From: an uncultured Candidatus Peribacteria bacterium
Lineage (GTDB): Bacteria; Patescibacteriota; Gracilibacteria; BD1-5; UBA2023
Assembly (NCBI GenBank): GCA_964430065.1
Contig: CAYSEP010000001.1
Span: 6,394 to 50,089, forward strand
Direction of reading: 5' to 3'
Length of the DNA: 43,696 bases
The notes under the pieces are model-generated. The model saw nothing but the letters and a program-made list of their open reading frames with translations. It did no database searches and was not told where the DNA came from. Position numbers and translations under genes: made by a program. Shown piece by piece: positions 1-43,696 of this stretch (positions are counted from its first letter, which is position 1; every line of letters begins with the position of its first letter).

Positions 1-576
1 ATGAGTGTATATATCCAGACGACCAATCTCGGACAGAAGATGCGTGCTATGCGCCATCTTTCTGAAACAGCGAGAGAAATCACTGAACGTATCGCTGAAG
101 ATGTACGAGAAAAGGGACTCTCTCTCTCAGGTTCAACATTCGATGATCACACCATAGGTTCTCCATGGAATACGATGGAATATACTGGTTCTGGAGGTGA
201 AATCCTCGGTATAAGAGATGGATCGAAACAATATGTATATGGAAAAGTTGAGAACGGTAGTGTATCTTACTGTAAAAATGAAGATCGAAAAAATCCAAAA
301 ATCCAATGTGGGCTTTATATCATAGAGAATCAAGACTTTACGAAATGGTGGAATCTCGTCGATAGCTTCGTTCCAGAAGAAGATAAAAAACGCGTAAAAA
401 TAGAAGATCTGAAGTTTTATATATCGGGTGATGGAATCACGACAGAGAAGAAAGTCACTCTCGTCTTCACACTCGCGCTCATGCCTCGGATCGGTGTGCC
501 ACCAGGACTTATTAGCGATACTCGTACCCATATACAGACGACGATCTCAGAAAGATTTTTTAAGAATACACCATAA
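1..576 (+). CDS. hypothetical protein; the 5' end may lie upstream of the window
   Basis: Uninterrupted 191-codon ORF ending at TAA 574-576. Its stop overlaps the next start (TAATG, 574-578), which suggests translational coupling with the pilin-like gene. I recognise no motif. Confidence 0.4.
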   Translation: MSVYIQTTNLGQKMRAMRHLSETAREITERIAEDVREKGLSLSGSTFDDHTIGSPWNTMEYTGSGGEILGIRDGSKQYVYGKVENGSVSYCKNEDRKNPKIQCGLYIIENQDFTKWWNLVDSFVPEEDKKRVKIEDLKFYISGDGITTEKKVTLVFTLALMPRIGVPPGLISDTRTHIQTTISERFFKNTP

Positions 577-1499
577 TGTACCACCCTCTTCTCGCATCTC
601 GTAAAGGGTTCTCTATACTCGTCGCCCTCGGAACTGTCGGGGTCCTGCTCATCATCGTGATCGGGATAGCATCGGTGTATCAGCGAGAGATTACTCTTTC
701 TCGTATGAGCTATGAGGATATCCTCACCGATGCTCGCGCTGAGTGAGCCTTCGAATACGCTATGCTGAAAGTACGAAATCATCGTGAAGGGTTCGAAGAT
801 AGCATGAAAACTGATGATATCGATACTCTCATCTTCTCTGGATCGAGTGACCGTACGAAAAATACCAAAACAACGTACGCTATCGAAGCACAAACAGGAA
901 GTCATATATTTACTGTAGGACCTGATGAACACCTCATATTGCCACTTTTTGTGGGGAGTGCTGATCTCATTTCGACTCATTCGAGAAATCCATCATTCTC
1001 GACTGGAGTAACGAGAACAACAGGACTTCAGATCACTTGAGCAGATGCGAATATCTCCTGGAGTATCGTCGCGATGAGTGGATCAGAGAATGTGAGTCTT
1101 GCAGGAAACGGAAATATAGGAACCAATGAGGTTGGTACGATGCGACTCAGATGAGAAGATTGTCTCGATAGTGATGGTAAGAATATAAACTGTAATGCTG
1201 TCTGAGTTGAAGAATCTCTCACCTACTTTTATGATCTTACTGGTTCGGTGAATGAATTTCTCAATTCATGAGGAAAATTCAATAAAACTTCTATAAAAGA
1301 TCCGTATATTCTCATTTTTAATGATGGCGAAAGTTCAACGATCACTATAAAAAGCGATACTCCTTACGCTCTTCCGAAATTGGAAGTGACAGCAGAGTCG
1401 AGAAAAGGAAATAGTCTAAAATCCATACGATTTATGGAAGATAAGAGTCGCTACTATGATGCACTCAAATATGGTGTATATGACACATATAATCCATAA
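576..1499 (+). CDS. type IV pilin-like / PilX-like minor pseudopilin
   Basis: ATG 576, 307 codons in one frame through 5 TGA codons to TAA 1497-1499; track ORF 762..1040 is an internal piece. The N-terminus MYHPLLASRKGFSILVALGTVGVLLIIVIG is a short basic leader, then G|F, then a hydrophobic helix, as in prepilins. DARAEGAFEYA resembles the PilX N-terminal region. Confidence 0.5.
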
Positions 1500-1520
1500 T
1501 TAAATAGGAGAGTCGAAATA

Positions 1521-1650
1521 GTCATTTTCGTCATTTCGAGTGAGCCCTGTTTCTGTGGGCGACGAGAAATCTTCCATACAAGGTACCAGAATTTGAAGAT
1601 TTCTCTCTTGATTCATTACAGGAACAGATGAATCTCGCTCGAAATGACAA
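1521..1650. repeat. family-A palindromic mini-repeat (copy A1), long multi-hairpin form
   Basis: Termini gtcatttcgagtgag ... ctcgctcgaaatgac. Internal perfect inverted repeat gagaaatcttc/gaagatttctc, plus gattcat/atgaatc. Lies between the convergent pilin-like gene and dnaB. Confidence 0.7.
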
Positions 1651-1670
1651 TTTATAAATACCCACTAGAT

Positions 1671-3017
1671 CTACTCCCCATCGAAGTCCCCATCTCGAGC
1701 GCGCTCGATCTCGTAGAATTTCTGATGCTGTTTTTCGAACTTCAGATCGACTTGTCCTGTCGGTCCATTTCGGTTTTTTCGGATAAAAATATTCGTCACA
1801 TTCGGTGTCTCAGACATATCGTTGTAGTAGTCATCACGGTAGAGCATGAGGATGATATCGGCATCTTGTTCGATCGCACCAGACTCACGGAGATCTGACA
1901 TGATCGGTCGCTTATCGGGACGAGCTTCCAGGGCACGAGAGAGTTGCGAGAGAGCGATCACAGGAACATTGAGCTCACGTGCGAGCGACTTGAGTCCACG
2001 AGAAATCTCAGATACTTCCTGGACGCGATTGAAACTATTTCCACTCGAGATAAGCTGGAGATAGTCGATCACGATGAGATCGAGTCCAGATTCCATCTTG
2101 AGGCGACGTGCCTTCGACTTCAGTTCTAGGATACCCGCTCCAGCAGGGGAGTCATCGATGTATATTTTCGCTCGAGAAAGACGCTCGAGAGCATCACCCA
2201 TCTTCGCGAATTCATCTTCAGAAAGTTTTCCTTTCTGGAGTTTCCAGCTATCGACTGCCATACTCGCTGCGATCATACGATCGGTAAGTTGCTCTTTCGA
2301 CATTTCGAGGGAAAACACTGCCACATTTTTTCCTTTTTCTCCGACATTTTGCGCGAAGTTCATAGCGATAGCAGTCTTTCCCATAGAGGGACGAGCTGCC
2401 ACGATGATGAGGTCTCCCCGCTTGAATCCTCCGAGTTTGAAATCGAATCCCTCATATCCCGTCGAGACGCTATTCGCCTGAGAAAGTGTCGGATCGGCAT
2501 GAATCGCGGCGAACTCTTCGTATCGAGCATTGAGGATATCTTTGATATGGACGAGTTTATTCTGGATGAATGTCTGTGTCACAGAAAAGAGAGATTTTTC
2601 TGCTTTTTCGAGGAGTTCGTTTATCTCTGTCACCTCATCGAAACCAGCTTGTGTGATATCACTTCCCGATTTTATAAGCTTTCGAAGGACAGATTTATTT
2701 TTCACGATCTGCGCATACTGGAATATATTCGCACTCGTGAAGACTGCCGTCATGAGATCCGCGAGGAAGTTATCCCCACCGATAGATTCGAGTTTTTTCT
2801 GGTCGTCTATGACCTCGCGGACAGTGAGTGAGTCGATAGGACGATTGCGCGCATAGAGATCGAGCATCGCCGCATAGACGATACCGTGTGCAGGGTCGTA
2901 GAAATCTTCAGGAAGGAGCATGCTCGCAACCTGGATCATACCATCCTTATCGATAAGGATAGAACCGAGGACTCAGCGCTCAGCTTCGATGCTATGTGGA
3001 GGGGTGGAGAGAGACAA
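1671..3017 (-). CDS. dnaB: replicative DNA helicase DnaB
   Basis: Track ORF 1671..2939 carries the Walker A sequence GARPSMGKT and other DnaB motifs. Reading through TGA 2973-2975 restores the conserved N-terminus PPHSIEAERGVLGSILIDKDG. There is no ATG, so TTG at 3017 is the likely start (uncertain). Confidence 0.9.
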
Positions 3018-3048
3018 AGTTGAATAAATAATGAATAACTATAGTGTC

Positions 3049-3429
3049 TTATTTCCAATAATGAGGAAGCAAGTCCGAGAGAGGAAGCATATCATTTTTT
3101 CAGATATATACAAGTGTATTTTTATTATTCTGGTGTATTTGCATCATCATTTCTCTGCATCTTCCACAAGGAGCTACTACTTCACCAGTATCTCGTACAG
3201 CGATGATTTCCGATATTCCAGAGTGATCAGTTTTAAGCATTTCAGCAATAGCAGAATGTTCCGCACAAAATCCTACACTCGCAGAAAAATCCAAACACTT
3301 ACCCGTAAAAATATTTCCATCTTTCGTGATCAGTGCAGCTGAAACACCTCCGACACTCGCATATCAGGAAAGGATAATATCTTCACTTATAGCAAAAGCT
3401 TCTTTATATAAAGTATCAAAATGATTCAT
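3049..3429 (-). CDS. cdd: cytidine deaminase (small homotetrameric type)
   Basis: CAEHSAI and PCGRCRE zinc-ligand motifs. ATG at 3429, two in-frame TGA codons, TAA at 3049-3051, about 126 aa. Confidence 0.8.
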
Positions 3430-3443
3430 ATTTAACTAAACTT

Positions 3444-4787
3444 TTATTTCTCCCCTCCAAAATTTCCAGCAAGTTCCTCTTCAGTAACGAGTTTTCCTAT
3501 GAGATCAACGATTTCTTGATTATAGGGAGTGAGGTTTTTGAGCTTTATGAGCGTCTCAACTGCTTCTTTTCGTTCACCTCGAGATATCAGTGCCTGTGTA
3601 TAGAGCCAGAGGATTTCTGGATTACGAGGGTATTGTTTCAGATAACTTTTTCCGTAGGTATAGACATCTTCTGGAAGTGAGAGCTCAGAAGCAAGATGAG
3701 TGAGCGTATAGAGAAGATCTTCTTTCTCTCCTCCGAGATCGAGGACTTTCTTATAGAGCTCGTAGGAGACCTCATAGCGTCGCTGCATGGCTAGAGAGGT
3801 AGCGAGATGTTCGAGGATTTCGAGATCGTCAGGGTAGAGTTTCGCGAGATCCTTGAAGATGTATTCTGCCTTGGTATAGGCATGATCTCGCTCGTAGAGA
3901 CTTGCCATGAGGAGATTGAGATCTCGGTGGTCTTTATCGAGCGCGAGCCCCGATACGATAAATGCTCGTGCTTCCTCGAGCTGACCGCGAGCGATGAGTG
4001 TCCTGACCATAGAGACGATTTCGACTATTTTGTCACGTTTTTCTGGTGCTATAGTGCTATCTAGAACTTTTTCAGAAATAGGAGCTGATACAGGAATCTC
4101 TATCTTTTCCTCGATCGTAGCGGTGACTCATACAGGAGTTTCTTCTATTTTTTCTGATATTTCTTCAGTTGATTCAACTTCTCATGTAGCGAGAAGAGCT
4201 TCAGGAAGAGTGTCTGGTGTCGTATGTCAGATAAGATCGGTGTCATCCTCGATTTTTTCTTCTGGTATTTCTACAGCCGTATCGACATCACTCGTTGATT
4301 CCGGTAGTTCTAGTATCTCTTCAGGGGCTTGAGCGTTTTCTATGATTTGCTCTATAGCACTATCGTCTGGAGTGATTGTTTCAGTTGTAGTGATAAGAGG
4401 TTCATCGAGAAATGGTGATACAACTTCTACTGTTTCTGGAGGGTTTTCTGGACTCGCTTCTGGAGTTTCTATCGTTTCCTCTGGAGGAAGCTCTGTTGGA
4501 GCTATTTCTACAGAGCTCTCACCTTCGGGAATTTGAGATGGTTCTTCTGGTGTGCCTGTTTCTGTCGGTAACTCTTCAGAAGCTTCTGTCATAGGGGTAG
4601 AGTTCTCCATGACATACGCTTTTCGCGGATGAAAAAGGTAAAAAATACGCTTCAAAAACTGATAAGCGTCATGCGCAAACATGAGTGCTATGAGTCCAAT
4701 ACAGAGAAAGAGGATGATGGCCTCGATCGATGCAACCTGATTCGTAAAGAGAAATTCCATGAAAAGAGGAAAGAAAATTGCTTCCAT
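3444..4787 (-). CDS. membrane-anchored TPR-repeat protein with an acidic Pro/Glu-rich linker
   Basis: Track ORFs 4227..4787 and 3444..4010 are in the same frame. The 216 nt between them contain only TGA (3 in-frame TGA in total, including the 4227-4229 junction codon), with no TAA or TAG. N-terminal TM helix, PE-rich low-complexity segment, C-terminal TPR-like helices. Confidence 0.6.
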
Positions 4788-4922
4788 ATGATAGAAAAAA
4801 AAATGAAATTTGCAAACAGGAAAATATGTTTTTCGAGAGAGAAAAACTTTTTCGAAAAATTATTTGCTTTTCTTATTCATTATCATATAATCCACCGCGA
4901 TTTACTTATCAATTCTCTCCTC

Positions 4923-5276
4923 ATGGACGCTACTCTCATCGCCGCGATACAGGCAACTACATCACAAAAATCTGACGACACTCGCTACAAGACGGGTATG
5001 GAAGTCGAAGTTCACCAGATCATAAAAGACGGTGACAAGGAAAGAATACAGCTTTTCCGCGGACTTATCATCTCTATGAAAGGAAAAACTCAGCTCGATA
5101 AAGTTATCACTGTACGTGCTGATATCGACGGGATCGGTATCGAGAAGATTTTCCCGATCAATTCTCCGTTCATATCGAAGATCGTCGTACTTCGTCAGTT
5201 CAAGGTTCGTCGCAATAATATCGGATATATCCGTAACCTTACTGGTAAAGCAGCTCGTCTCAAAGAAATCAAGTAA
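4923..5276 (+). CDS. rplS: 50S ribosomal protein L19
   Basis: MDATLIAAIQ...KERIQLFRGLIISMKGK...RRNNIGYIRNLTGKAARLKE matches the L19 family. The upstream in-frame extension in the track overlaps the TPR gene and is not credible. No TGA codons. Confidence 0.9.
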   Translation: MDATLIAAIQATTSQKSDDTRYKTGMEVEVHQIIKDGDKERIQLFRGLIISMKGKTQLDKVITVRADIDGIGIEKIFPINSPFISKIVVLRQFKVRRNNIGYIRNLTGKAARLKEIK

Positions 5277-5294
5277 TTGTTCTACGGTTCTTTT

Positions 5295-5325
5295 AAAAAC
5301 TCCCCCATTTGGGGAGTTTTTCTTT
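5295..5325 (+). terminator. intrinsic terminator downstream of rplS
   Basis: aaaactcccc-attt-ggggagtttt hairpin followed by a T-rich run. Confidence 0.7.
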
Positions 5326-5362
5326 TCTTATAGTGAATGCTAAAAGATTTGCTAGTGTCAGT

Positions 5363-5440
5363 CCTCCTCTTATAGGGGAGGTAAGGAGGGGTACTTTCGT
5401 CTCGAATACCCCCTCTCACTCGCCCTACAAGGGGGAGAAT
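5363..5440. repeat. family-B G/C-hairpin mini-repeat (copy B1), intergenic
   Basis: cctcctcttataggggagg ... ccccctctcactcgccctacaagggggagaat. Colinear with copy B2 at 25705-25769 apart from a 12-nt insert. Confidence 0.7.
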
Positions 5441-5758
5441 TTGGAATCAGAGTATACAGACTTATGGAATAATTTCAGTATTTTATAGCACGCGAGAATC
5501 TCATTTCAGAGTAAAAAAGTTACTATAAATCTCTAAAAATTCTTCACATACTTCGGCTTGCTTTTTCCGTGAAGCAATGGTGAAGGGCGTTACTCATTTT
5601 TCCTGTATACATAGCGTGTTCGATATTCCTGTCAAATGATTTTTTTCTTTTGACTTCGCTTAAAAAAAGAATAAAAAGGCGTTCATAAATCCAGAGATAA
5701 AACAGTATTACAGAGCGTATAGTGAGTCCGTCAAGTTTCCATTTCTTTTGCTCTTCTC

Positions 5759-7183
5759 ATGTCACAGGTTTTCTCTTTTCTTCATCTCACAGAAGTTATC
5801 AAGTCTCTCTCAGTTTCTGTGCGTAAGCAAGATTTTCTTACATATTTTAAGAGATTTTCTCTCGTGTCTGCTACAGAAGATAGTATCACTCTCGGGGTAG
5901 TATCGTCATTTCACCGGGACAATCTCCTGAAGAAGTTCTATGATGAGATCAAAGAAACAGTACAGAAAGTCAATCCAGCAATAACTTCTCTCGATATCGT
6001 CGTCGATGATGAGATGGACAGGAAGTGAGAAGATCTTGTCGTCGACTGTAGAAATGCTCTCAAAGAAAGTGAAAAAACTACCAAAAAACAACAAGTCGAA
6101 TGAGTAGAAATCGTCGAAGGACTCAATAGTCGTCTCACGAGTGATAGATATAAGCTCGATAACTTCATCGTCGGTCCATCGACACAGCTCGCTCATGCAG
6201 CCTGTGAAGCGGTTGCTCGCCGTCCAGGAAGCTCATACAATCCGCTCTATCTCTATGGGAACGTCGGACTCGGGAAGACGCACCTTCTTCAGGCAAGTGC
6301 GAACACGATCCGCGAGAAGCACAAATGACTGAAGGTGATATATACGACGGCAGATAGATTTCTCTCTGACTATGTCGCGAGTATCAAGGGGCGTTCTATA
6401 GATAAACTCCGTGAAAAATACCGCCAGATCGATGTCCTCGTGATCGACGACGTCCAGTTCCTCTCAGGGAAAAAACAAACTCAAGAAGAGCTCTACAACA
6501 TCTTCAATATCCTCTACGAAGCAGGAAAGCAGATCATCCTCTCGGGAGATCGTCCGCCGAAAGAGCTCACTGAGCTCGAGCCACGACTGCAGAGTCGATT
6601 CGAGTGGGGGATCACGGTCGACCTCGGAGAACCAGACTACGAGACGCGTCTCGCGATCATCCAGGAGAAATCCCGTGCCAGAGAATTCATCCTCGACCAG
6701 GAAGTGGCAGAGTTCATCGCTGAGAATGTGACGACCAATGTCCGTGAACTCGAAGGTATACTCAACCAGATCATCGCAGAATACGATCTCAAGAATACTC
6801 CTCCCACTCTCGAAAATGTCGCATTTCGTCTCTCAAAACTCGCCGTCCGCTCTATCACGACGAGCCTCACAGAAAGTCGATGAGTCCGTACAGGAAACTG
6901 TAGTTACGAAGACCTCATCCAGGCTGTCTCTGGACACTTCGGTATCGAGATCCGTACACTCCTCTCAGAAGATCGCAAAAAAGAAAACATGATCCCTCGC
7001 CAAGTCGCGATGTATCTGCTAAAAAACCGACTTCACTACACCTACGAACGCATCGGGAATATATTCTCAGGGCGCAACCATACAGCAGTGATGTACTCAT
7101 GCAAGAAACTCGAACTCGTGATGAAAAAAGATCAGCAAGTTGTGTATGAAGTGAATGTGATACGGGATAAACTTGGAATTTAA
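5759..7183 (+). CDS. dnaA: chromosomal replication initiator DnaA
   Basis: Track pieces 5759..6028, 6335..6883 and 6989..7183 share one frame. The gaps contain only TGA (4 in total). The joined protein has the Walker A sequence [14 protein letters not shown], sensor motifs, and the domain IV sequence RQVAMYLLK...GRNHTAVMY. Confidence 0.95.
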
Positions 7184-7221
7184 TCTTCAATCGATCAATA
7201 AGGTAATTAAGAATTTATAAT

Positions 7222-7692
7222 ATGGGAAATATAATTACAAATTCTTTAGAAAAACTTCTTCCCTCATGAGTATCTAGCAATGAGCAAGGTATCGTAAAAA
7301 TTGTTCGAACAAGCATTGCAGAGTTACTAAATGAATATACCTCAAGAGAACTTGATGAAATAGATAAATTAGACTCAGTATGAGAAAAAGCAAAAGGCGC
7401 TTACAATACACTAAAGAAAAGAATTAAAGAGCTACATCCAGATGAGGATTTTGAGCTCTATGAAGAAACTTCTCGCATAAATACACTTGCATTACAAATA
7501 CTTGATTATGGAAAATGGTGAATAAACGGTTCTCTGCAGAAAATGATGCATAATCTTTTGATGCTAAGAAATCAATCACTTCAGATACAGCTTATCGATA
7601 CGGAAAATGATGAACGAAAAATGCAATGACGTCCAGCATTCTTGTCAGCAGACTTTGCAGAATTAAAAAGAGATTTTACCTATAGTTCTTAG
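7222..7692 (+). CDS. hypothetical helical protein
   Basis: 156 codons from ATG 7222 to TAG 7690-7692, with 4 in-frame TGA. AT-rich composition unlike the flanking dnaA and rsmI. It occupies the position where dnaN usually sits. Confidence 0.45.
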
Positions 7693-7698
7693 ACTTTT

Positions 7699-8361
7699 AT
7701 GCTCTCAATAGTTTCTACACCAATAGGCAATCTCGAAGATATCACGCTTCGAGCAATGCGAATACTGAAAGAAGCAGACTATATAGCCTGCGAAGATACT
7801 CGTATGACAGGGCAACTTCTCGGCTACTACGATATCCCAAATGACGGGAGACTTCTCTCATTTCACTCGCACTCAGGGTTCTCGAAGATGGAGCGGATCA
7901 TAGAGCTCCTGAAAGAAGGAAAACATGTGGCGCTCGTATCGGATGCGGGGACTCCAGGTATTTCTGATCCAGGATTTGTCCTCATACGCAGAGCTGTCGA
8001 AGAGGGGATCGAGGTGACTCCTATCCCATGAGCTTCTGCTGTTCTTTCCGCACTTGTCGCAAGTGGGATCGACTGTCATCAGTATCTCTATCTCGGATTC
8101 CTCCCCGTGAAGAAGTGACGCCAGACGATGCTAAAAAGCCTCGTGAACAAGGAATATACCGTCGTCGTCTATGAGTCAGTCCACCGCATCGAACGGACGC
8201 TCGAGGAACTCTGAGAATATCTCTGAGCCGATCATCATATCGTGGTTGGGCGCGAGCTCACGAAGAAATTCGAAGAATTTCGCCGTGGAACCATCGCCGA
8301 AGTAAGAGAGTACTATAAGTGAGAGGGGAAAGTGAAAGGGGAGTTTGTATTAGTATTTTAG
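7699..8361 (+). CDS. rsmI: 16S rRNA (cytidine1402-2'-O)-methyltransferase RsmI
   Basis: The sequence [18 protein letters not shown], the sequence [12 protein letters not shown], and IP[TGA]ASA (family consensus IPGxSA). 5 in-frame TGA, TAG at 8359-8361. Confidence 0.85.
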
Positions 8362-8441: not shown

Positions 8442-11366
8442 ATGTCGATTTTAGTTTATTCTGAGTGAGACTCTGGGGTCGAGAAAATAAATGCAACAAA
8501 AGAGCAAAAACCTGACCACCTTTGATTAACAGCAGACGATTACTCTAGTTGTGCTTTTGCTATGGGTTTCGATAGGGAACGAGTAACTAAAACTCTAGAG
8601 TATTTTTCTAAATACCGCCAGGTAGCCGCAAGTCTCATGCATTTAGATATTGAATCTTCTACATTTTTAAACTCATTCCTTAGTTGCTTACTATTCGAAA
8701 GAGAACTAGTAGTACCAAGTGAAGATGTTGTAAATAAGATAAGAAACTGGATAGCATCGATTCCTGGTATTTGGGCGGTAAATGAGGATTTTCTTATTGC
8801 TATTGCAATGGAAAATCAAAAATCTTATCACACTCTTAGAGTATTACTTTTATTTGTAAACTTCTGGAGATTGCATCCAAAGTATATCTGAAGGTTAATT
8901 GGGGAAGACGAATATAGTAATAATTCAGAGAAAGGAATCGTACCTTTAACTCTAGCCAGTTCTGATTTCATAGCTCTTTCTAATATATATTTGGCTAAAT
9001 CAGATAATCTTAACTTTAGATCAACTACATGGTTTAATACGAGTGATGGGAATCGTCTCACTTACCATTTTAAGTGAAGATACTCTTCTCAAAAAAATAA
9101 AGATGTTGGCAAAGCCTTTCCTCACTATCGACATTTTTGTAAGATAGATTCTATAGGAGCACTCCGCGCATTGGAAGAATACATACTTGTTTGATGATTT
9201 TGACTACAAGAATCTGGTGATATACCTATTGATATACTTCGAGCTTTTATCAGAAAACATATTCTTCATATTGATACGATCATTGCTTTTTTAAACAAAA
9301 AATGAATAGATTTTTATTCATTGAATCAACTTACAAGAAAAGTTATTGAGGCAGAGAGAGGGAAAATTGCGTGAGGATCACCTACCCCTAAAAAAACAAA
9401 CCCATGAAAATTATGAAAACATACCTCAATCCTTCAGCCATCACGACCAATATATACTAGTAATGCAAATAATAGTAATACTGTAGACCCAAATACCAGA
9501 AACACAGTTCCAGAAAGCCATAAATATGAAGTTCCTATTTTTATCTGAAACGCAAAGAAATCTCTTATATCTTGACAATGATTTAATTGAACTAGAGAGA
9601 ACCTAGTAAGAGAGATCCCTTACTCCAAACTTACACTTTTATGGATTAGGGAGGATTGAGGTGAATGGATATCTCATGCAGGGTGAATTTCTATAAATCT
9701 CAACAAGAAGGATATTGGTTCATATGAATTCTGTTATACTCGTCCAGAAAATACTCCAGAAACGGAAAATAGTCCAGTGGAAAGAATACAAATCGAGCAA
9801 AAGAAAAATGTATGAAGTATCACAGATACTGTGCCGAAACAAGTTGCCGTGAACATCCCTGATCAGCCAAAACAAGAAGAAGAAAACCCACTCGATGCTA
9901 TCGCTCTGAATTTACTTTCGAAGATTGGAGAAGGTGCTTATGCTATTAATGAAGATGGTCTAGGAAATATCTCTCTGAGATTTTCGGATTGTGACTATGT
10001 TGCTCGTTGGTATAAGGAGCTTTCTATAGCAACGCTCTCTGGATGAGGAACGGAAAACGATCATGCATATCTTATAGACCTTCTTAGAAAAGAAATTACA
10101 AATGCATTTACCCAACATATGGCTCTAAAAAGAGAGAGAGAAGAGGCAGAAAAAACGCGTATACTGATTCAAGTAATGGGGAAGTTCACAGATATGATTA
10201 TAGCACTGAGCTGACCACATGATGTTCTAAATATAGAAACCCTCCTGAGAGCATCGAGGCACAACGACTATCATGCAGGGATTATTGCTACCAGAAATGG
10301 TTATAAGGAAAAAACGGATAAATTTTTAGTTGAGATGCGAAAACTCTGAGTTATCATAGAGTACGCTCGAGTAGACATATCATGAAAAAAGGACGAGAAG
10401 TGAAAAGAATTCTCCCTAAAAGTATATGCTCAAAGTGATCAAGAAAATATAGTTTCTATACACTCTACTCAGGATAACTATACTTTACAAGGCGGTATGG
10501 GAGACGAGAAACTTGCCGAGATTGCCAAAGCAGGTTTTGCACTCTTTGGACTCTTGGGAAGAAGAATTATAGAAGAGCCTCATTCTAGCCAAGTAAAGAA
10601 ATGAGAAACTAAACCAACAGTAAGTGACGTACTCGGTGGAAACTATAAAAAACCTCGGACAATCTTTACTCAGCTTGAGAAAGGTGAACAAGATACCATT
10701 CGAGATTTGATAAAGCGACTCGATGAATGAAGGGGGAAAATATCAAAAGGTGCTTATGTAAATTATGAGATAGGTTTTCTAGATCATCAAATATCCAGTA
10801 GAAAAGGCTGGCAAGATATCCAAGATTGAGATATGCTTGTCCTTCGAGATGAATCTATCAGGGCCGAGAGTAGTGAACATACTAAACCAAATCCAGAAGT
10901 ATACGATCTCCTTGAAGTGAGTGAACATTTTCAGAAGTACATGCTCCTCAGGTGGGTAAGTACTATAACAGATATAGAAGGTATATCCCTTCCTCAGTAC
11001 AAAAGACAAAAATCACCATTCCAGAATTGAGCACTTGAATTTTTTCGAGCATTTTGGTTCTCACTCTCAGAAGAAAAAAGAAACGAATTCAAGAACAATA
11101 TCGGACTAGATCCAAATACAGAAAAGCTATCACCGACAACATGACTCAGGACTATGTACGATGAATGAAGAACTCTCTTTCATCACTTCATGTATCTCAT
11201 TCGAAGGGGGCGAGAAAATGCTATCACTTACCAGGAGGGTAGTGAAAGGAAAATATACCAACAGAGGTGACCTATTCCACTCATATATACACGACCGAGT
11301 CTTATAACTCAAGAAGATCTTAGAGAATATCGACAAGAAATTGCACAAAACACATGAAATCACTAA
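8442..11366 (+). CDS. large orphan protein (974 aa) of unknown function
   Basis: I read frame 0 line by line from ATG 8442 to TAA 11364-11366. There is no TAA or TAG in 974 codons of AT-rich DNA, and 31 TGA codons. Track ORFs 8562..8891, 9831..10046 and 10833..11030 are pieces of it. No domain recognised. Confidence 0.7.
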
Positions 11367-13054: not shown

Positions 13055-14524
13055 ATGAGTATTTTTTGACAACTATTTCCATCATATTGAGAACAAGATC
13101 ATGTTTGAGTTTTGCGTGATGCTGATTTGGTTCTTAGTTTGCTAAGATGACATCCAGAAATGTGAAAATTTCACGATAAGATTATAGCTCTACTGCAAGA
13201 TGATTCGAGTATTTGAGTAACACTAAGAGAGAAACTTTTTCGATCATATGGATCGATGAAAAACTGACCTCTAGCTCCTCAAGACAGAGAAAATCTTACA
13301 TTAATTGATAAGTCTCATTGAGCATACAAAGATATGCTTACATTTCGCTATTTTGCACAAAGTAATCCTTCGCAGTTTCTCGAAAATCTTAAAGTCAATA
13401 TCCAAAAATTACTTGATAAGTATCCCCTAAAATCAGAAGAAATAAACAAAGTTTCAGAAATGGTGTCCAAAGTAGATGAGAAGAATTTTGCTTCGATACT
13501 ATCTCATCTCACTAATCATGCAGAAAAAATCGCATTTTGTGAATGATGTATCAGTAAGGGGAAGTGTCTTCCTCAAATTCTTGCCTATGCGAAAGAAGAA
13601 CAAAATGTCAGGACAGACACAAAAGAAAAATCGTTTGAATATTGGGACTATAACAATCTCATCTCTCTTGTGGAGACTCGCATGAGAATTTCAGATAAAA
13701 AAACAAATGAAAGTAAGGCATTTTCCCTTTCTGGGTGAGCATGAAATGCTCTCAGTCAGCTCTCTGTGATTTATGAGTATATAAAATGATGAGGTCGCGT
13801 ATCTAGTATCTCAGGAACCAGTATGGGGTCGCTGATTGCAGTGCTTGTAGCAAAAGCTTGAAATAATCATGAGCAGATAAAGAAATTTATGGATGATATA
13901 GAGATGATGGGCAACCAATGAGTAATACCTGAAAAATTAAACTCAAGCCAAAAACAAAGGGAAGCTTTAGAGTTATTTGAGAAATTTCTTGAAACACATG
14001 GCATAACAGAACAGACTCGTTTTTCTGATCTTGATATACCAGCTCTAGTAAATGCATGAAGGCAGTATGAATGATGAGAACAAGAAGTGGTACTCTGATG
14101 ATCTGAGAAAGTTCTCGAAGCAGTGCGCGCCTCCATGAATGTGCCGACTGGAAATAATAATAATGGTAAACTAGGCTCTACACCTGTTCATGGAGTCCCT
14201 ATGATCGATTACGCTGCGAATGAACGATGAAACCCTACTCACTGGCTTGAGATTGCCTGAGAAGAGCAAAAAAATCTTGTAGCTATTGATGTTTGATATT
14301 CTTCTGAAAAATGAGGAAGTGCATTTGTGAGAAGACTTTTTCAGAGAGCGACATTTAGGGATTTTTATGCAAAGATGCGTATGAAATCAGCTGGAGGAAT
14401 CGTTATTGATATGCCTCTCCAATCTAGCGAATGATATAACTTTCCTAAAGGTGCTATGCGAAGATTCTTTGATATCGGTAAAACTGCATACGAAGAACAC
14501 TTTACCTCCCCACCCGCACCATAA
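13055..14524 (+). CDS. patatin-like phospholipase with an N-terminal domain of about 225 aa of unknown function
   Basis: Frame 2 is open from ATG 13055 to TAA 14522-14524 with about 25 TGA. The oxyanion motif SG[TGA]A[TGA]N reads GGxG, the nucleophile elbow is GTSMG, and ASMNVP and a downstream IDYAAN (Asp of the dyad) are present. Confidence 0.75.
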
Positions 14525-29618: not shown

Positions 29619-30959
<1,341 letters not shown>

Positions 30960-31016: not shown

Positions 31017-32390
31017 TTATTTTGATTTTTTGAGATTCTTCGCGACGATCTTCAGAGACTTCTCGAGTGCTTTGAGTCCTCGATCGATCTCATCATAACT
31101 GATGATAATAGGTGGCTCGATACGAGAAGTAAGAGCACTGTTCAGTGTACCAGCTATCAGGACACCATGCTTGAAGAGCTCGGCGGTGACCTGGTATCCG
31201 ATCTCTGCAGAGCGGAAGTGCTGAGCGATAAGGAGTCACTTCCCACTCACAGACTCATAGATTTCTGGATACTCTTTCACGAGTTTTTGGAGTTTTTTCA
31301 TGAGATAGACTCACTTCTCCTCTGCCATCTTCGGGAAGTCATCTCGGAGAGCGATATGGAGACCTGCGATCGCTGCAGAGCAGGCGAGGGCTCATCCCCC
31401 TGTCGTCGTGGTGTGTATGAAAGGATTCGGATGCATCATGCATTGCCAGATTTTTTCTGTCGAGACAAAAGCCGATATCGGCATGACACCACCACCGAGA
31501 GCTTTTCCCATCGTCATGATATCAGGAACGACTCCCCAGTGATCGACTCACCACATCTTCCCCGTACGTCCGATGCCTGTCTGAACTTCGTCAGCTATGA
31601 GAAGGACGCCATGTTTCGTCGTCGCGGCTCGGATGCGCGGCCAGAAATCATCAGGTGGGACGACCGCACCTGCTTCTCACTGGATCGGTTCCATCATGAC
31701 AGCCGCGATACCGACTCCGACGGTTTCACATATTTCTAATTGTCTCTCTACAGCCTCAGCATCACCATAGGGGACATGATAGACTGGTCATCCATAGAGT
31801 TGTCCGACAGGTTCTCGATAGTCTTTTTTCCCGATCATAGAAAGCGATCCCATCGTCTTTCCGTGGAATCCTTTCACCGCGACGATGAATCCTGCTTTTT
31901 TCGTATACATCTTCGCGAGTTTGATCGCTCATTCATTGGCTTCTGTGCCACTTCATGCGAAGAAAGCGTATTTCAGATCTCCTGGAGTAATCTCAGCAAG
32001 CATACGAGCGAGCACGCCACGGAGAGGGTCGATGAGCTCTTGCGATGGCATAGGGTTATGGAGAAGCTGTGACTGAACTGCCTCGATAACTTCAGGATGT
32101 GACCATCCATGAGAAAGCAGTCCGTAGCCTCCGAGCCAGTCGATATATTTGCGTCCGTAGACATCTTCGATAGTAGATCATCTCCCTTTCCACTCGATAG
32201 CCGCATGATCTCCTGCCAGCGTGACAGATTTTCTATATTCGAGCCATCATTCATTGAAGTGTTCATGGAAGTTATGCAACGACTCTTCTGCGATCCAGTT
32301 GGCTTCCTCGAGGGTTGGTGTTTGTTTTTCTTTGATGATTTCGAGCCACTTGTGACTATAGGCGAGGACAGATTTTTTGGATGCTTTCAT
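31017..32390 (-). CDS. patA: class III PLP-dependent aminotransferase, putrescine aminotransferase (YgjG/PatA)-like
   Basis: I read the frame line by line: 457 codons, 10 TGA, no TAA or TAG. The motifs EYRKSV, SGTEANE, EPIQ[TGA]EAG, DEVQTGIGRTGKMW, the sequence GKALGGGVMPI, HTTTTGG and RIEPPI resemble E. coli YgjG as I remember it. Confidence 0.8.
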
Positions 32391-32605: not shown

Positions 32606-32680
32606 TGGCAGCCCCGCTCAGAATCGAACTGAGGTTCTCGGCTTTGGAGACCGATGTACTAACCGCTGTACGACAGGGCT
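32606..32680 (-). tRNA. tRNA-Trp (anticodon CCA), 3' CCA encoded
   Basis: Folded by hand. Acceptor AGCCCTG/CGGGGCT, D-stem GTAC/GTAC, anticodon stem TCGGT/GCCGA with loop CTCCAAA, and T-arm CTCAG-TTCGATT-CTGAG. Confidence 0.9.
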
Positions 32681-32713: not shown

Positions 32714-33502
32714 CTAGATAGAGTATCGATAGAATTTTACTACTGCATCTTTTCCGATAAAATCACCAACTTTCATATCAGGATTGACGACAAATGGTTG
32801 CGTAAGGAGAGCATTCTCTTCACGGAATTTTGTCATTTTTCCATCGATGATTTTCTCGAGGATTTCTGCAGGTTTGCTTGCATTTTTCGGATCTTGTTTC
32901 ATGATCTCGAGTTGGATTTCTTTCTCTTTTGCCACGACCTCATCGGAGATGTCAGTAGGAGAGGTAACCTGTGGAGCAGAAGCAACGACGTGCATAGCGA
33001 CTTGCTTGAGTTTATCAGCATCAGTCCCAGATTTTGCGACGACGACAGATCCGTTCTTAAAGTTCGAATGGACATAGCTTGCTATGACATCACCTTCGAT
33101 CTTCGTGAGTGCTTGGATGACCATGTTCTCACCGACTTTGAGTGTGTATTCACTTGCTTTGAGTTCATCAGCCTGGTCAATAGCTTCAGCGTCTGAGTCA
33201 GAGTTCTGACGGATAGAGATGAAATGATCGAGCATCGCATCGAATGTCTCGTTGCGAGCGACGAAGTCAGTCTCACAAGAAACGACTGCTACATAGGTAG
33301 CACCACCTTCTGTGACGATCTTGATTTTTCCTTCGCTTGTCTCGTTTCCAGAGCGTTTCGCAGCCTTCGCGAGACCCTTCTTACGGAGAAGGTCGATCGC
33401 AATCTCGAGGTCACCATTGGCTTCGACGAGTGCATTTTTACAGTCAGACATACCGACTCCTGTTCTTTCACGGAGTTCTTTTATCATTTGAGGGGTTACC
33501 AT
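32714..33502 (-). CDS. tsf: translation elongation factor Ts
   Basis: The N-terminal UBA-like sequence MIKELRERTGVGMSDCKNAL. 262-aa intact ORF with no TGA codons. Confidence 0.95.
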   Translation of the reverse strand: MVTPQMIKELRERTGVGMSDCKNALVEANGDLEIAIDLLRKKGLAKAAKRSGNETSEGKIKIVTEGGATYVAVVSCETDFVARNETFDAMLDHFISIRQNSDSDAEAIDQADELKASEYTLKVGENMVIQALTKIEGDVIASYVHSNFKNGSVVVAKSGTDADKLKQVAMHVVASAPQVTSPTDISDEVVAKEKEIQLEIMKQDPKNASKPAEILEKIIDGKMTKFREENALLTQPFVVNPDMKVGDFIGKDAVVKFYRYSI

Positions 33503-34020: not shown

Positions 34021-34824
34021 TTACGCTTCTACGGTTTCAGTTTTTTCAGGAGTTTCTTCTGTTTTCACAGTACGAGCCATAGGAGTTTTTGGAGCGAGTT
34101 TCTCTGTTTTTGCTGGTGCTGAAGCGAGAGGTTTCTTATCATCAGACTTGCGAGCCTTGATAGACGACTTGAGTTCACCGAGGATGAATGCAAGAGCCTT
34201 GATCGAGTTTACATTGCATGGAACGAAGTAGTCAGTCTTATCGATATCACCAGTAGAACCGAGGAGAGCGATAGTAGTGACACCCATAGTATGAGCTTCT
34301 GTAAGAGCAAGATCTTCGTAGTGACCATCGACGACCACGACGACATCTGGAGCGCGTTTCATGTCTTTCACACCGACATATGCCGTCTTGAGTTTCTCGA
34401 GTTCCTTCATTTTTACTGATACTTCTTTCTTCGTAAGTCCTTCGAGCATCCCGTTTGCGAGAGATGATTCGAGTTCGTTATAGTAGCTGATTCGTTTTTT
34501 GATCGTTCCGAAATTCGTGAGGAGTCCTGGAACCCACTTCGAACTGACATAGAAATGTCCTGTAGCGATAGCAAGAGCTTCGACGAGATCCTTAGTCTGA
34601 ACCTTCGTTCCGACGAAAAGGATAGTCTTTCCACGAGAAGAAAGATCTTCCAGAAGAGCTTTCACTTCAGTGAGCTTTTCTGCAGTTTTATAAAGGTCGA
34701 ATACATGGATACCATTCTGGACACCATAGATGTAGTTACGCATCTTTGGAGACCAGTATTCACGCTTGTGTCCGATGTGGACGGCGTTTTCGAGCATGCT
34801 CTGTACGAGAGTAGCGTTTGACAT
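34021..34824 (-). CDS. rpsB: 30S ribosomal protein S2
   Basis: The sequence LENAVHIGHKREYWSPKM and other S2 motifs. 267 aa with no TGA codons. Confidence 0.95.
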   Translation of the reverse strand: MSNATLVQSMLENAVHIGHKREYWSPKMRNYIYGVQNGIHVFDLYKTAEKLTEVKALLEDLSSRGKTILFVGTKVQTKDLVEALAIATGHFYVSSKWVPGLLTNFGTIKKRISYYNELESSLANGMLEGLTKKEVSVKMKELEKLKTAYVGVKDMKRAPDVVVVVDGHYEDLALTEAHTMGVTTIALLGSTGDIDKTDYFVPCNVNSIKALAFILGELKSSIKARKSDDKKPLASAPAKTEKLAPKTPMARTVKTEETPEKTETVEA

Positions 34825-35382: not shown

Positions 35383-36852
35383 TTATTTTACTCATTCATA
35401 TCACTTTCCTCAGATCCATTTATAAAGCATTTGTCCTGCGACGAAACCTATGATCGCCATGAGGAATCCGAAGAAGTGTGGAGGCATAGAGTATACTTCC
35501 TCGAATCCGAGAGAGTACTCGAATGTCAGCCATGTCCCGATACCTACGATCATAGAGAGGAGAGCAGAGATGGTGTGGACTTTTTTACAGATGAGTGCCA
35601 TAGCAAGTGGGACGAAGGCTCAGGCAAGAGTGATCTTGTAGGCATTTTCTACCATTTCGAATATACGAGCCTCTTCCTGATAGTATTTGTATGAGACGAA
35701 GCTCACGATGATGAGAAAAAATCCGATCACTGAAGCTCGAGTCATGAAGAGTGCCTTACGATCAGAAATACGAGGAAGAAATGGGCGAAGGATATTTTCC
35801 ATGAAGAGTGCCGATGGCGCAAGAAGCGTCCCCGATGCTGTCGACATGATGGCTGAGAGTAGAGCTCAGAAGAACATGACTTGCACAAAAAGAGGGGTAG
35901 CCTCGAGGATAAGTATAGGGAGGACTCGCTGAGTATCGCTTGTTCCTGTGATGAGATCGGGAGCTACCATATACGCTGCATAGCCGAGCATGATCGGGAG
36001 AAATGCTATGATGATATAGAGTGATCATCAGAGAATTCATCATTTTCGAGCATGCTCTCGGGAATCTGCCGAAAGCACTCTCTGAAAGACATCTTGCTGT
36101 GGTATAGAACCAAATCCCATGGTCAGTACAGCAGATATGATCCCTATGATAGCGACAAGTGAGAATCCATCTGGAAGAAGGTCGAACTTCCCAGCACTAT
36201 ATGCCTCAGAGATGACATGCGTCATGCCACCAGCACCAGGAAGCGATGTGACGAAAAAACTCGCGATAGCCATACCCACAACGATGATGATCATCTGGAA
36301 AAAATCTGTGAGTGCCACAGACCACATCCCTCAGAAAAATGTATAGAGAAGAACGATGAATCCGCCGATCAGTGACCACTGCATCTGTGAGAGAAAAGCA
36401 AGACTCGATCCCTCTGTGAGTATATCTCCGATGAGTCCGAGTGCGACGATCTGTGCCGATACCCACCCGATATAGGATACGATGATCATGATCGAAGCGA
36501 GGAGCTCTACGGTACGGCCGTATTTCATACGATAGTAGTCTCCGAGCGTCTTCACTCAGGCATCGTAGAGAGGTCGTGCGAAGAAAAGTCAGACGAGGAT
36601 AAGACAGAGTCCAGCACCAAATGGATCTGCGAGGATGCCCAGAATCCCTTCATCGAGAAATGTCGATGACGTCCCGAGTACTGTCTCAGAGCCAAACCAT
36701 GTGGCGAAAGTCGTCGCGATGACGATATAGAGGGGAAGTCCGCGTCATGCGAGAATATAGTCTGTATCCGTCTTCACTCGACGCGAAGCATAGAGTCCTA
36801 TACCTATAGAAATGATGAGATAGAGCCCGATCCAGAAGAGAAGTGAGTTCAT
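35383..36852 (-). CDS. sodium:solute symporter (SSS) family transporter
   Basis: All four track pieces on this strand share one frame. I read that frame line by line: 489 codons and about 13 TGA. Typical SSS features include the sequences FATWFGSETVLG and GSIPQQDVFQR and multiple TM helices. Confidence 0.8.
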
Positions 36853-38420: not shown

Positions 38421-38434
38421 AAAATAATCACGCT

Positions 38435-38954: not shown

Positions 38955-38958
38955 TAAA

Positions 38959-40392
38959 ATGCCAAAAGAATACGAACTTATCATGTGACTCGAGACCCAC
39001 GTCCGAGTGAAGTCGAACACCAAGATGTTCTGTAGCTGTGCGAATGCTCTCGAGCTCGCAAAAGAACCAAATATGAATGTCTGTCCTATCTGTATGGGAT
39101 TTCCTGGGATGCTTCCGACACTTTCCGCAGGAGTCGTCGATCTCGCTGTACGTGCTGGTCATGCGATGCGTGGGCAAGTGCAGGAAAAAAGTATATTCGA
39201 CCGCAAGAGCTATTTCTACCCAGATCTTCCTATGGGATACCAGATTACTCAGCTCTATGAGCCGATCGTGATGGGCGGGGAAGTGCGTGCGATGGTCGAA
39301 GGTGAGGTGAAGACATTTCGCATACACCATACCCATATCGAGAACGATGCAGGAAAGCTCGTCCATGCAGGAGGGAAGACTCTCTGTGACTATAACCGTG
39401 CAGGATCACCACTTATGGAGATCGTGACGGAGCCAGATTTCCGATCGAAAGCAGATGTGATAGGCTATCTCGAAGAGCTCCAGAAGCTCATGCGTTGGTG
39501 TGGTGCGAGTGACGCTGACATGGAGAAGTGACAGCTTCGCTGTGATGTGAATATCTCTGTTCGTGAGAAGTGAGAGACTCAGTTCCGTAATCGTGTGGAA
39601 CTGAAAAATATCAACTCATTTGCCTCTATCGCTCGTGCGATAGACGTCGAGTACGCTCGCCAGGTCGAGATCTACGAGACTGGTGGAACGATCGACCAGG
39701 AAACTCGAGGATGGAGCGATGAACGTGGATACTCGACTCCACTCCGGTCAAAGGAAGATGCCATGGACTACCGCTACTTCCCAGATCCAGATCTCCCACC
39801 ACTTATCCTCACACGTGAGTATATCGAAGAGAGAAATATCGGAGAACTCCCCATGGATCGCCGACTCAAGTATAGAGATACATACAAGCTCATCGAAGAT
39901 GACGCGCGCATACTTTCGAGTGATCGGCTCACAAGTGATTTCTATGAGTCTCTTGTAGCGACATCGGGCGATCCGAAAAAGTCGTGTTCCTATATCACGA
40001 CGGTACTCTTCGCGATATTCGAAGCGCACCATGAGAAGATCGATCTCTCCCACGTGAAGGGCTGAGCTCTCGAGATCGGAAATGTCATCAAGCTCGTAAA
40101 TGCAGACGCACTATCGAGTACGAACTCGAAACTCGTCGTAGAAAAACTCGTCTTCGAAGGAGGAACTGCAGAAGAGTGGGTCGAGAAACTCGGACTTCGC
40201 CAGTCCAATGACACGAGCGCACTCGAAGCGATCGTCGACCAAGTCATCGTGGACAATGCTTCCCAAGTCGCGGAGTACAAATCTGGAAAAGAGGCACTCT
40301 TCGGCTTCTTCGTCGGACAATCTATGAAAGCCTCGAAATGACAGGGAAATCCGAAAATATTCACAGACATACTCAAGAAAAAACTCTCCTAA
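38959..40392 (+). CDS. gatB: Asp-tRNA(Asn)/Glu-tRNA(Gln) amidotransferase subunit B
   Basis: M[TGA]LETHV (family consensus IGLEIH), the sequence CPICMGFPGMLP, ME[K][TGA]QLRCDVNISV and YRYFPDPDLPP. Track pieces are in frame. 5 TGA. Confidence 0.95.
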
Positions 40393-40847: not shown

Positions 40848-40903
40848 GAGTATGATATATCCAATAATTTGCAAAAGTCAATAATTTATGTTAAAATACT
40901 CTC

Positions 40904-41701: not shown

Positions 41702-41709
41702 ACTGTCTC

Positions 41710-41734
41710 GTCATTCCTGCGAAGGCAGGAATCC
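41710..41734. repeat. family-A short hairpin (copy A9), intergenic
   Basis: gtc attcctgc gaag gcaggaat cc. Confidence 0.75.
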
Positions 41735-41828
41735 AGTAATAATATGATTTATACCATATATTTCATATAATTCTCTTTTCTTTTGCAAAAGAGTTTTTTT
41801 AAGATATATTCATACAATAATTTTTTCT

Positions 41829-43574
41829 ATGCCATTTATCGATATTCCGCAAGTTGATCCGAATCAATTACCAAGTTTATGAGCTCCACCACCTCTCACA
41901 CAGAGTATATCGAGTCGTGTAAATAGCGTCACTATCGGATATACCGTGCAGGTCAAAATACCTGATGGGAATACTTATCACTATCGGAACACTGATGAGA
42001 TACTCCATTCCCTCATATATGCCTACGAGAATATATCGAGATGATCTCTTTCGAAAGAGGAGAGAGCACTTCTCGAGAAAGTATGGATACAGTATACATC
42101 TTCGAGATGAACAACTCTCAGTCTCACTGATATACTGAGATTTCTGAGTACTAGTGAGGATGCTCGCATGAATGAAATAAGTAATGTCATCGGAAACAGC
42201 ATCTCTACCGATCCACAGAACCTCTATCTGCTCTTGTCAGAAAGTCTCAGTAGAGAAGCAGGGCGATTTCGATGATTTCTCACAGATCTGATAGGAAAAA
42301 TCCCCCCGAAAGAACTCTCGAATCTCATCCTCATAATCGGCTGACTCGATCGTACTCAGGATATATCCGGAATCATGGCAAGTCTCACCCCAGAACAACG
42401 AGCAGAAATTACAGAAATAATGAAAGATCCACGAAGTCGACGAGTATTTCTCCAAGATGTCGTCCTTCGTATGACTCATCTCATCTATAGGGAGACTGGC
42501 GTGCGTATCGATGCTATAAGTTTCGGATGAAGAGAGCATGGAGATGGGGGTATGATCATATCGATACCAGGAAAGGCAGGGAAACCGATATTTCTCATCA
42601 TCACGAAACACCATACTACCGTAGCCGAAACAGCAACAGAAGCTCTCGATACACTCAGTATGGCAAACAAGAGTCCTGTCTTTACTCACTATCTCATCGA
42701 TGCGAGTGGAAAAATCCTCTGACAGATCGAGACACCTCTTTCGGTATGGACACGAGATCAGATATTCCCGACAGCGGAACTCATGGAACGGTGGACGCGA
42801 AACCCGAGTCTAATACCGACAGGAGTGAGTCTCGATATCTCTCTCTTCAATCATAGAAACAAAGTCACTCTGACACAAAAAACCAAAAATGGATGGTTCG
42901 CACAACTTGGTATCTCCGAAGGGAACATATGGGGAATAAGAGCAAATACATCATTCGCAAATTTCGGATGGCAATATAAAAGTCAGGAAAATACCCTTAC
43001 GCTCCACACATCTGCCAGCAGTACGAACTTTGATCCTCGTGGGTTTCGAGATGTGGAAGGACTCTCTTTTGGTGCGAACTGGTATAATTCTCTCGGGAAA
43101 GTAGGGAGCATCACGCTCAGTTCATCAGGAAGTGCGTATATAAGTGCGCAGGCTACGGAGTGAAACTGGAGAAATCCGCAAATAGGTGAATGAGTCATAA
43201 AAAATAGTGTTCATGCGAATTCTCAAATTTCTCCTCATACTACAATCAGTACATCAATCGGAAGCAAATACAACTGGGCACCATGAAATGTGACACCAAA
43301 TACTTTCGATCATATACAAATCTCCGATAGAGATCTCTGAAGAGCTCTGAGCTCTACAGAATATGGCTTCCAGGTAGCTCATATACTCCAAAACGGAGAA
43401 AAAATAGACGGGAATATTCACTATGAGATATGACCTCTAGCAAAGAAAATACAAGGACAAGTCTCTTATACTCTCGCGGATGGAAAAACTCGTCTCATCG
43501 GACACTGAGAAAAAACAAGTTGAACCTATAATTCGAATACTTATTATGGATTTCGCCTAGAACATAAATTCTAA
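41829..43574 (+). CDS. large hypothetical protein (581 aa), beta-strand-rich C-terminal half
   Basis: I read frame 0 line by line from ATG 41829 to TAA 43572-43574, with 16 TGA and no TAA or TAG. Track ORFs 42783..43163 and others are fragments. Confidence 0.6.
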
Positions 43575-43613
43575 AAAATCCCTCTTTCGAGAGATTTTTT
43601 TATATATTAAAAA

Positions 43614-43696
43614 CTACACATCCAAATTCGCTACGCTCGTTGCACGCGACTGGATGAAGTGCTTGCGTGGTGGAACATCCTCACCCATAAGCATAC
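43614..43696 (-). CDS. 3' end of an unidentified gene that continues beyond the window
   Basis: The frame ending ...GEDVPPRKHFIQSRATSVANLDV-TAG (43614-43616) stops just before the shared hairpin at 43575-43603. Confidence 0.3.
   Translation of the reverse strand, partial: MLMGEDVPPRKHFIQSRATSVANLDV

Follow-up and report, generated by a model that had tools for sequence, protein, structure and literature searches.

UGA as a glycine codon across a 43.7-kb stretch of Gracilibacteria (BD1-5) DNA

We analysed a stretch of 43,696 nt with 42.4% GC (contig CAYSEP010000001.1; hereafter the window), in which genes are broken up throughout by the codon TGA when they are translated with the standard code. 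The window is very probably chromosomal DNA of a Patescibacterium of the Gracilibacteria (BD1-5) type that uses translation table 25, with UGA an ordinary glycine codon and UAA and UAG as the only stops, a reading drawn from comparison of sequences. Open reading frames that cross TGA without interruption, glycine in the homologous columns, exchange of TGA with GGN codons among relatives, and profile scores that are best when TGA is translated as glycine all point to this assignment.

Results

Reading frames stay open across TGA

The original prediction described essential genes that look shattered under the standard code, with TGA as the sole interrupter, and our gene calls bear this out. We drew up a map of 39 genes from open reading frames (ORFs) called with TGA as a sense codon, refined by codon-usage score and by Pfam scans of the window ORFs in which TGA was written as X. 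Once TGA counts as sense, about 96% of the window lies under long ORFs, and the 39 genes, nearly all of which have TGA in frame, hold 212 such codons in 12,892 (16.4 per 1000 codons, or 22% of glycine codons, and up to 5% of all codons in some genes). TAA and TAG stand only at gene ends, TAA in 26 genes and TAG in 13, and no gene terminates in TGA. The picture is the same in the 17 genes with Pfam support, which have 111 in-frame TGAs in 6842 codons, no internal TAA or TAG, no frameshifts, and termini of TAA (13) or TAG (4), and which table 11 breaks into 128 pieces. The glycine content is 5.8% without the TGAs and 7.4% with them.

The gene identities that had been named also hold, as the Pfam alignments continue through the TGAs over the whole length of the profiles: the catalytic domain of glutamyl-tRNA synthetase (GluRS) is covered from 2 to 314 of 314 positions, SSF from 1 to 406 of 406, and GatB_N from 3 to 277 of 277. 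UAA and UAG are kept as stops, since alignments of GluRS, glutamate dehydrogenase (GDH) and GatB reach within a few residues of the C-termini of solved homologs and then meet TAA or TAG. Ten codon positions had been singled out as TGA on invariant glycines, and all ten are TGA in the frame and context described. The genes that carry them are listed here, with the TGA-encoded residue written as x in the contexts.

7699-8361 (+), rsmI-like methyltransferase: 5 TGA; Pfam TP_methylase. TGA of IP[G]ASA at 8029-8031, context EVTPIPxASAVLS; relatives have GGN (8) or TGA (9).
13055-14524 (+), patatin-like phospholipase: 25 TGA, 60% of glycine codons; Pfam Patatin 1.3e-6. TGAs of G[G]A[G] at 13736-13744, context SLSGxAxNALSQL; the GxSxG motif (GTSMG) comes after.
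16009-17475 (+), gltX (GluRS): TGA at 16063, 16111, 16810 and 16936; Pfam tRNA-synt_1c 3.7e-91. TGA of HIG[G] at 16063-16065, context GYLHIGxLRTALY.
22682-23851 (+), ppk2: 1 TGA; Pfam PPK2 1.1e-89. TGA of GK[G]G at 23195-23197, context RDAAGKxGNIKRF; relatives have GGN (5) or TGA (11).
24369-25835 (-), HI0933-like flavoprotein: 8 TGA; Pfam HI0933_like. TGA of [G]xGxxG at 25812-25814, context KTIAIIxAGAAGL.
25840-26385 (-), AAA_33 P-loop kinase: 8 TGA, 80% of glycine codons; GC 29%; Pfam AAA_33 4.7e-14. TGA of GLP[G]TGKT at 26353-26355, context VIAGLPxTGKTTL.
29619-30917 (-), gdh, glutamate dehydrogenase: 4 TGA; Pfam ELFV_dehydrog 6.2e-71, ELFV_dehydrog_N 1.5e-53. TGA of GGGK[G]G at 30597-30599, context PLGGGKxGIIVDP; TGA of Q[G]AGNAG at 30234-30236, context KKIVIQxAGNAGL.
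31017-32390 (-), class-III (putrescine-type) aminotransferase: 10 TGA; Pfam Aminotran_3. TGA of EPIQ[G]E at 31677-31679, context MMEPIQxEAGAVV.
38959-40392 (+), gatB: 5 TGA; Pfam GatB_N. TGA of I[G]LE at 38986-38988, context EYELIMxLETHVR.

For two of these sites the word invariant claims a little too much: the fourth residue of the HIGH motif is glycine in just 8 of 17 standard-code GluRS sequences and methionine, serine or alanine in the others, and the Thermus thermophilus enzyme has HVGT at this motif (PDB alignment). The P-loop residue, likewise, occupies a typical rather than a defining position of the Walker A motif.

Glycine is the residue at TGA positions

Glycine, the residue originally proposed for UGA, is what aligns to the TGA columns. 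We compared GluRS at 80 loci from GTDB species representatives, over the 120 columns conserved at a level of at least 80% among 17 standard-code sequences. At these columns TGA lies on glycine in 93 of 96 cases, the codons GGA, GGC, GGG and GGT lie on glycine at 91-97%, and TGG lies on tryptophan in 39 of 39. The 39 closest GluRS genes contain 187 in-frame TGAs in total, 62% of them opposite glycine in standard-code homologs and with tryptophan not among the top classes; no in-frame TGA occurs in the standard-code GluRS sequences checked.

The ten TGAs of the aminotransferase were compared with 120 database homologs: eight fall on near-invariant glycines (89 homologs), one on alanine, and one on asparagine or glycine. 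A standard-code homolog (P0068), encoded on a 3.2 Mb contig whose genes use TGA as a stop and never within the frame, has GGN at all eight glycine sites; the E. coli aminotransferase structure, taken alone, has glycine at four of the ten. In PDB alignments, both motif sites of GDH (30597 and 30234) are G in three of three structures, and GatB has G in three of three structures at three sites and in two of three at a fourth. When the structures of GluRS, GDH and GatB are combined with the aminotransferase homologs, the majority residue is glycine at 18 of 23 sites and tryptophan at none.

Related genomes use TGA and GGN at the same sites. Across 77 TGA sites in 13 genes (902 codon pairs), the codon opposite a TGA of the window is GGN in 358 pairs, TGA in 338, TGG in 8 and some other codon in 198, and these counts are unchanged between BLAST with table 4 and with table 25. 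In the reverse comparison, GGN codons of the window stand opposite TGA in 7-13% of pairs. Individual sites range from those at which TGA is kept (15 of 15 relatives at 24945, 16 of 17 at 8320) to one in the sensor histidine kinase (14604) with GGN in 18 relatives and TGA in two; the sites of mltG/YceG have GGN or TGA in 119 of 130 pairs. As judged from these codon alignments, UGA is in frequent use as a sense codon with the meaning of GGN, and the two interchange freely between relatives.

Re-translation of the TGAs gives the same answer. In seven of seven Pfam domains the score with glycine exceeds that with X, which in turn exceeds that with tryptophan, and glycine leads tryptophan by 7-28 bits:

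HI0933_like: G 217.0, X 200.7, W 195.5 bits
HI0933_like_1st: G 59.4, X 50.0, W 48.5 bits
Aminotran_3: G 308.3, X 291.4, W 280.5 bits
SSF: G 127.4, X 113.9, W 108.7 bits
TP_methylase: G 118.0, X 113.6, W 106.2 bits
GatB_N: G 359.6, X 347.7, W 345.7 bits
GatB_Yqey: G 117.5, X 113.6, W 110.6 bits

All 20 residues were also scored against hidden Markov models (HMMs) built from the 17 standard-code GluRS sequences and from 86 aminotransferase homologs that do not belong to the immediate clade of the window. Glycine is best in both, with 589.8 for GluRS (alanine 580.5, tryptophan 573.9) and 835.9 for the aminotransferase (alanine 816.2, tryptophan 799.7), and tryptophan ranks 18th and 19th of 20.

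Nearest relatives of the window

The nearest GluRS neighbours place the window in the Gracilibacteria/Absconditabacteria clade, which is GTDB class JAEDAM01 (gTranslate preprint, 10.64898/2026.05.24.727570). The best 40 of the 80 GluRS loci come from uncultured metagenome-assembled genomes (MAGs) whose labels read Candidatus Gracilibacteria, "Peribacteria" or Patescibacteria group. Identity to the window falls from 94% at the closest to 47%, and in-frame TGA occurs in every one of the 40 loci. The next matches past these 40 are ordinary Firmicutes at no more than 44% identity. The closest MAG (L003; CAYVAG010000002.1) aligns collinearly with the window, in blocks of 85-91% nucleotide identity. 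The exact sequence of the window is not among the reference genomes (GTDB species representatives). A TGA-free ORF (27556-28485) has exact protein matches on two Logan contigs of 2-3.5 kb, from SRR13208906 and SRR13208889, both of which lie wholly inside the window and add no extension to it.

tRNAs of the window and of related contigs

The sole tRNA in the window was found by both ARAGORN and Rfam, and an Rfam scan of the whole window returned nothing besides it.

32606-32680 (-), tRNA-Trp(CCA): ARAGORN; Rfam RF00005, 58.9 bits.

Its anticodon, confirmed here as CCA, had been offered as an argument against UGA as tryptophan; the anticodon stands, but the argument carries little weight because bacteria that read UGA as tryptophan may hold CCA and UCA tRNA-Trp together. 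The tRNA has a normal 5-bp anticodon stem, A1-U72 and G73, and should read UGG only. A short-stem tRNA-Trp has been proposed as a UGA reader (PMC13092985); given its normal stem, the tRNA-Trp of the window is not of this type.

We scanned metagenome contigs for the pattern of anticodon UCA together with the glycine identity set G1:C72, C2:G71, G3:C70 and U73 (the set used by Shulgina and Eddy), and obtained 24 tRNA(UCA) genes of 71-79 nt. Most of their contigs have frames that are open only with TGA as sense (on contig L141 the long-ORF coverage rises from 0.15 to 0.90), several have genes in common with Gracilibacteria loci, and three of the tRNAs, checked in Rfam, are ordinary tRNAs and not tRNA-Sec. 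Five lie immediately upstream of tRNA-Gly(GCC) and four upstream of tRNA-Arg(GCG), a tRNA in use by the Candidate Phyla Radiation (PMC8629427). The sole link to the window is contig L157, which encodes a gatB 57% identical to that of the window about 10 kb from its tRNA(UCA); it shares no other gene order with the window, so the position of the tRNA cannot be projected onto this genome.

A conserved 79-nt tRNA(UCA) family recurs on contigs L129 (5120-5198), L141 (3980-4058) and L157 (10034-10112) and at 15 further loci. Its members run GCGGGGGTAACATAA...GGCTTCAACC...CCCCGCTCCA with an encoded CCA end, a long D-loop and a possible sixth anticodon-stem pair; on their contigs, which use TGA as sense, the gene that follows directly is tRNA-Gly(GCC) or tRNA-Arg(GCG). 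Another metagenome contig, L161, carries 27 tRNA genes arrayed on one strand (2924-7704), including a tRNA(UCA) with a glycine acceptor stem, a tRNA-Trp(CCA) and a tRNA-Gly(UCC); this array could represent a tRNA island of a phage or mobile element that brings a UGA decoder with it.

Alternative readings of UGA

Some observations weigh against the reading of UGA as glycine in this genome. Neither the window nor any of 45 related gltX loci encodes a tRNA-Gly(UCA), the tRNAs seen being Trp(CCA), Leu(UAA) and Gln(CUG) only, and none of the 24 tRNA(UCA) genes of the pattern scan could be tied to the genome of the window. At about one-fifth of the TGA sites homologs have a residue other than glycine (N, S, E, A, K); this share is of the same order as that of GGN codons at variable positions, and so we do not take it as real counter-evidence.

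Tryptophan, the sense of UGA in the table 4 code of the Mycoplasma and endosymbiont type, would leave the gene calls equally open, and 31 of 120 aminotransferase database entries do show W at the TGA positions, though owing to their translation table. We find this alternative scarcely credible: TGA never falls on a conserved tryptophan column of GluRS, and TGG does so in 39 of 39 cases; only 8 of the 902 codons opposite window TGAs are TGG; W loses to G in every Pfam domain tested and comes near the bottom of both 20-residue tests; and the tRNA-Trp of the window has a CCA anticodon on a normal 5-bp stem. Pseudogenes, sequencing or assembly errors, or selenocysteine codons would explain the fragmented look under table 11 and nothing beyond it, and we put their probability next to nil. 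The interruptions are TGA only, never TAA or TAG, and come without frameshifts; their positions are kept in independently assembled relatives, as at 24945 and 8320; the sites align with glycine, not with cysteine or selenocysteine; and 212 sites in 43.7 kb is far above any selenoproteome.

It is also very unlikely that UGA has more than one outcome, through ambiguous decoding or through read-through that depends on context, with some termination or a mixture of residues. A tRNA with U34 could in principle read UGG too (PMC8629427), and the highly expressed genes rpsB and tsf, which are free of TGA, would fit a cost of decoding; the avoidance of TGA, however, tracks the GC content of genes (Spearman -0.62), which is the simpler explanation. 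With some 16 TGAs per 1000 codons, up to 5% per gene and within catalytic motifs, the density and siting of TGA are incompatible with appreciable termination, and GluRS, GDH and GatB run to near full length against solved homologs before they end in TAA or TAG.

Other codons and public protein sets

Absconditabacteria, and possibly some Gracilibacteria, additionally read CGA and CGG as tryptophan (PMC8629427). Both in the window and across its clade, the residues opposite CGA, CGG, AGA and AGG are arginine or lysine and never notably tryptophan. On the GluRS conserved columns CGA lies on R at 0.94 and CGG at 0.89; against relatives, CGG meets R or K in 86% of pairs, with tryptophan outside the five commonest classes. 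CGA is not rare, at 11.0 per 1000 codons in the 17 Pfam-supported genes (CGG 1.9). Neither the GluRS columns nor the comparison with relatives revealed a further reassignment of CGA, CGG, AGG or any other codon, the GluRS columns being judged for codons with adequate counts. Since CGA and CGG remain arginine, the code is plain table 25.

The aminotransferase draws attention to two further points. In 31 of its 120 database homologs (P0001-P0120) tryptophan stands exactly at the TGA positions, where the family columns are glycine, because these clade entries were translated with table 4; public protein sets of the clade hold systematic glycine-to-tryptophan errors in catalytic motifs. The enzyme (31017-32390, minus strand) is also 67-68% identical to standard-code bacterial proteins (locus L083 3001-4359), one of which is encoded on a 3.2 Mb contig beside amino-acid permeases. 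So high an identity is unusual for a Patescibacterium and points to possible acquisition of the gene by horizontal transfer.

Uneven use of TGA

TGA is spread unevenly. There is none in rpsB, tsf and several further genes, individual ORFs of low GC use it for 44-80% of their glycine codons, and over the 39 genes its share of glycine codons is inversely related to gene GC (Spearman -0.62, p = 2e-5). Four islands interrupt the collinearity with L003 (8362-11816, 13021-14503, 20968-22555 and 25835-26934); they are absent from or replaced in that genome, and their genes have low GC and poor codon-usage scores. TGA makes up 38% of glycine codons in the four islands, against 15% in the L003-collinear genes. 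The islands may be strain-variable or mobile DNA. Two causes of the unevenness are possible: selection against UGA in highly expressed genes, if its decoding is slow or error-prone, or an origin of the islands in phages or mobile elements that have adapted to code 25. That UGA-glycine usage marks the flexible part of this genome is a tentative idea, which we consider rather unlikely; if it were true genome-wide and beyond the effect of GC, it would add a new layer to a known code.

Other genes of the window

The remaining genes include the following.

1671-3038 (-), dnaB, replicative helicase: Pfam DnaB_C 5.5e-103, DnaB 8.5e-34; one TGA, close to the N-terminus (2973-2975, context EAERxVLGS).
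5759-7183 (+), dnaA: 4 TGA; Pfam Bac_DnaA 1.2e-63, Bac_DnaA_C 6.1e-23.
8442-11366 (+), 974-aa ORF, function unassigned: 31 TGA, 44% of glycine codons; GC 36%; no match in the Pfam scan; inside an island that is not alignable with the closest relative.
14502-15806 (-), sensor histidine kinase: 5 TGA; Pfam HATPase_c, HisKA.
18418-19449 (+), mltG/YceG: 5 TGA; Pfam YceG 7.1e-55.
19513-20967 (+), ferric-reductase/rubredoxin/FNR fusion: 9 TGA; Pfam Rubredoxin, Ferric_reduct, NAD_binding_1, FAD_binding_6.
32714-33502 (-), tsf (EF-Ts): 0 TGA; Pfam EF_TS 8.3e-45.
34021-34824 (-), rpsB (ribosomal protein S2): 0 TGA; Pfam Ribosomal_S2 3e-64.
35383-36852 (-), sodium:solute symporter: 13 TGA; Pfam SSF.
41829-43574 (+), 581-aa ORF, function unassigned: 14 TGA; no match in the Pfam scan.

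Pfam identified further genes for an ECF sigma factor, a TrhO-like rhodanese, a GNAT protein, a PNPOx-like protein and others. The symporter ends in ...YKWIxGKxYExVK, with three TGAs among its last ten codons: table 25 gives it a short, glycine-rich tail, and table 11 an apparent end ten codons earlier.

Upstream of dnaA lies a gap of 971 nt with 38% GC (4788-5758). No gene can be called in it with confidence, the sole candidate being a weak 142-aa ORF (4902-5327, minus strand), and neither a cluster of DnaA boxes of the E. coli TTATCCACA type nor notable repeats were found in it. An origin in this gap would have to use boxes that depart from the E. coli consensus.

Discussion

The code of the window is already known: it is table 25, found in the lineage for which that code was defined, and nothing in it is new. 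Gracilibacteria and Absconditabacteria are known to use table 25 (PMC8629427). The assignment of UGA to glycine is described in work cited by PMC8629427 (Campbell 2013; Rinke 2013) and was validated by proteomics (Hanke 2014, PMC4032931, as cited in PMC6851277). The window has in common with the table 25 lineage, Gracilibacteria (BD1-5) and Absconditabacteria (SR1), the use of UGA at glycine positions with UAA and UAG as the only stops, and nearest relatives among Gracilibacteria MAGs with the same TGA use; its GC of 42% falls inside the reported range of 0.21-0.53. UCA tRNAs with the glycine set lie on related contigs, though none could be assigned to the genome of the window. We see no substantive difference from this lineage, though the species, with its closest GluRS at 94%, is not among the reference genomes.

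Reasoning from the lineage, UGA would be decoded by a dedicated tRNA-Gly(UCA) with G1:C72, C2:G71, G3:C70 and U73. Release factor 2 (RF2) would have been lost, so that nothing would compete for UGA, and release factor 1 (RF1) would serve UAA and UAG, while the tRNA-Trp(CCA) of the window would keep UGG as tryptophan. No BD1-5 genome available in 2019 was reported to have a detectable prfB (Sieber 2019, PMC6851277).

Two neighbouring codes help to place this one. The variant code of Absconditabacteria (Shulgina & Eddy 2021, PMC8629427) likewise has UGA as glycine, but reads as tryptophan the codons CGA and CGG, which are arginine in the window. In table 4, used by Mycoplasmatales, several insect endosymbionts and some Actinomycetota, UGA has also passed from stop to sense, with loss of RF2 as the presumed enabling step as for table 25; there it is tryptophan, whereas in the window it is glycine.

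We suggest that the window is best seen as a textbook instance of the sole known stop-to-glycine reassignment, in the lineage of its discovery, and one that leaves existing knowledge unchanged. Its value is practical: everything else in the window needs translation with table 25, and table 4 would place tryptophan in catalytic glycine motifs such as GxGxxG, the P-loop and GGGKGG.

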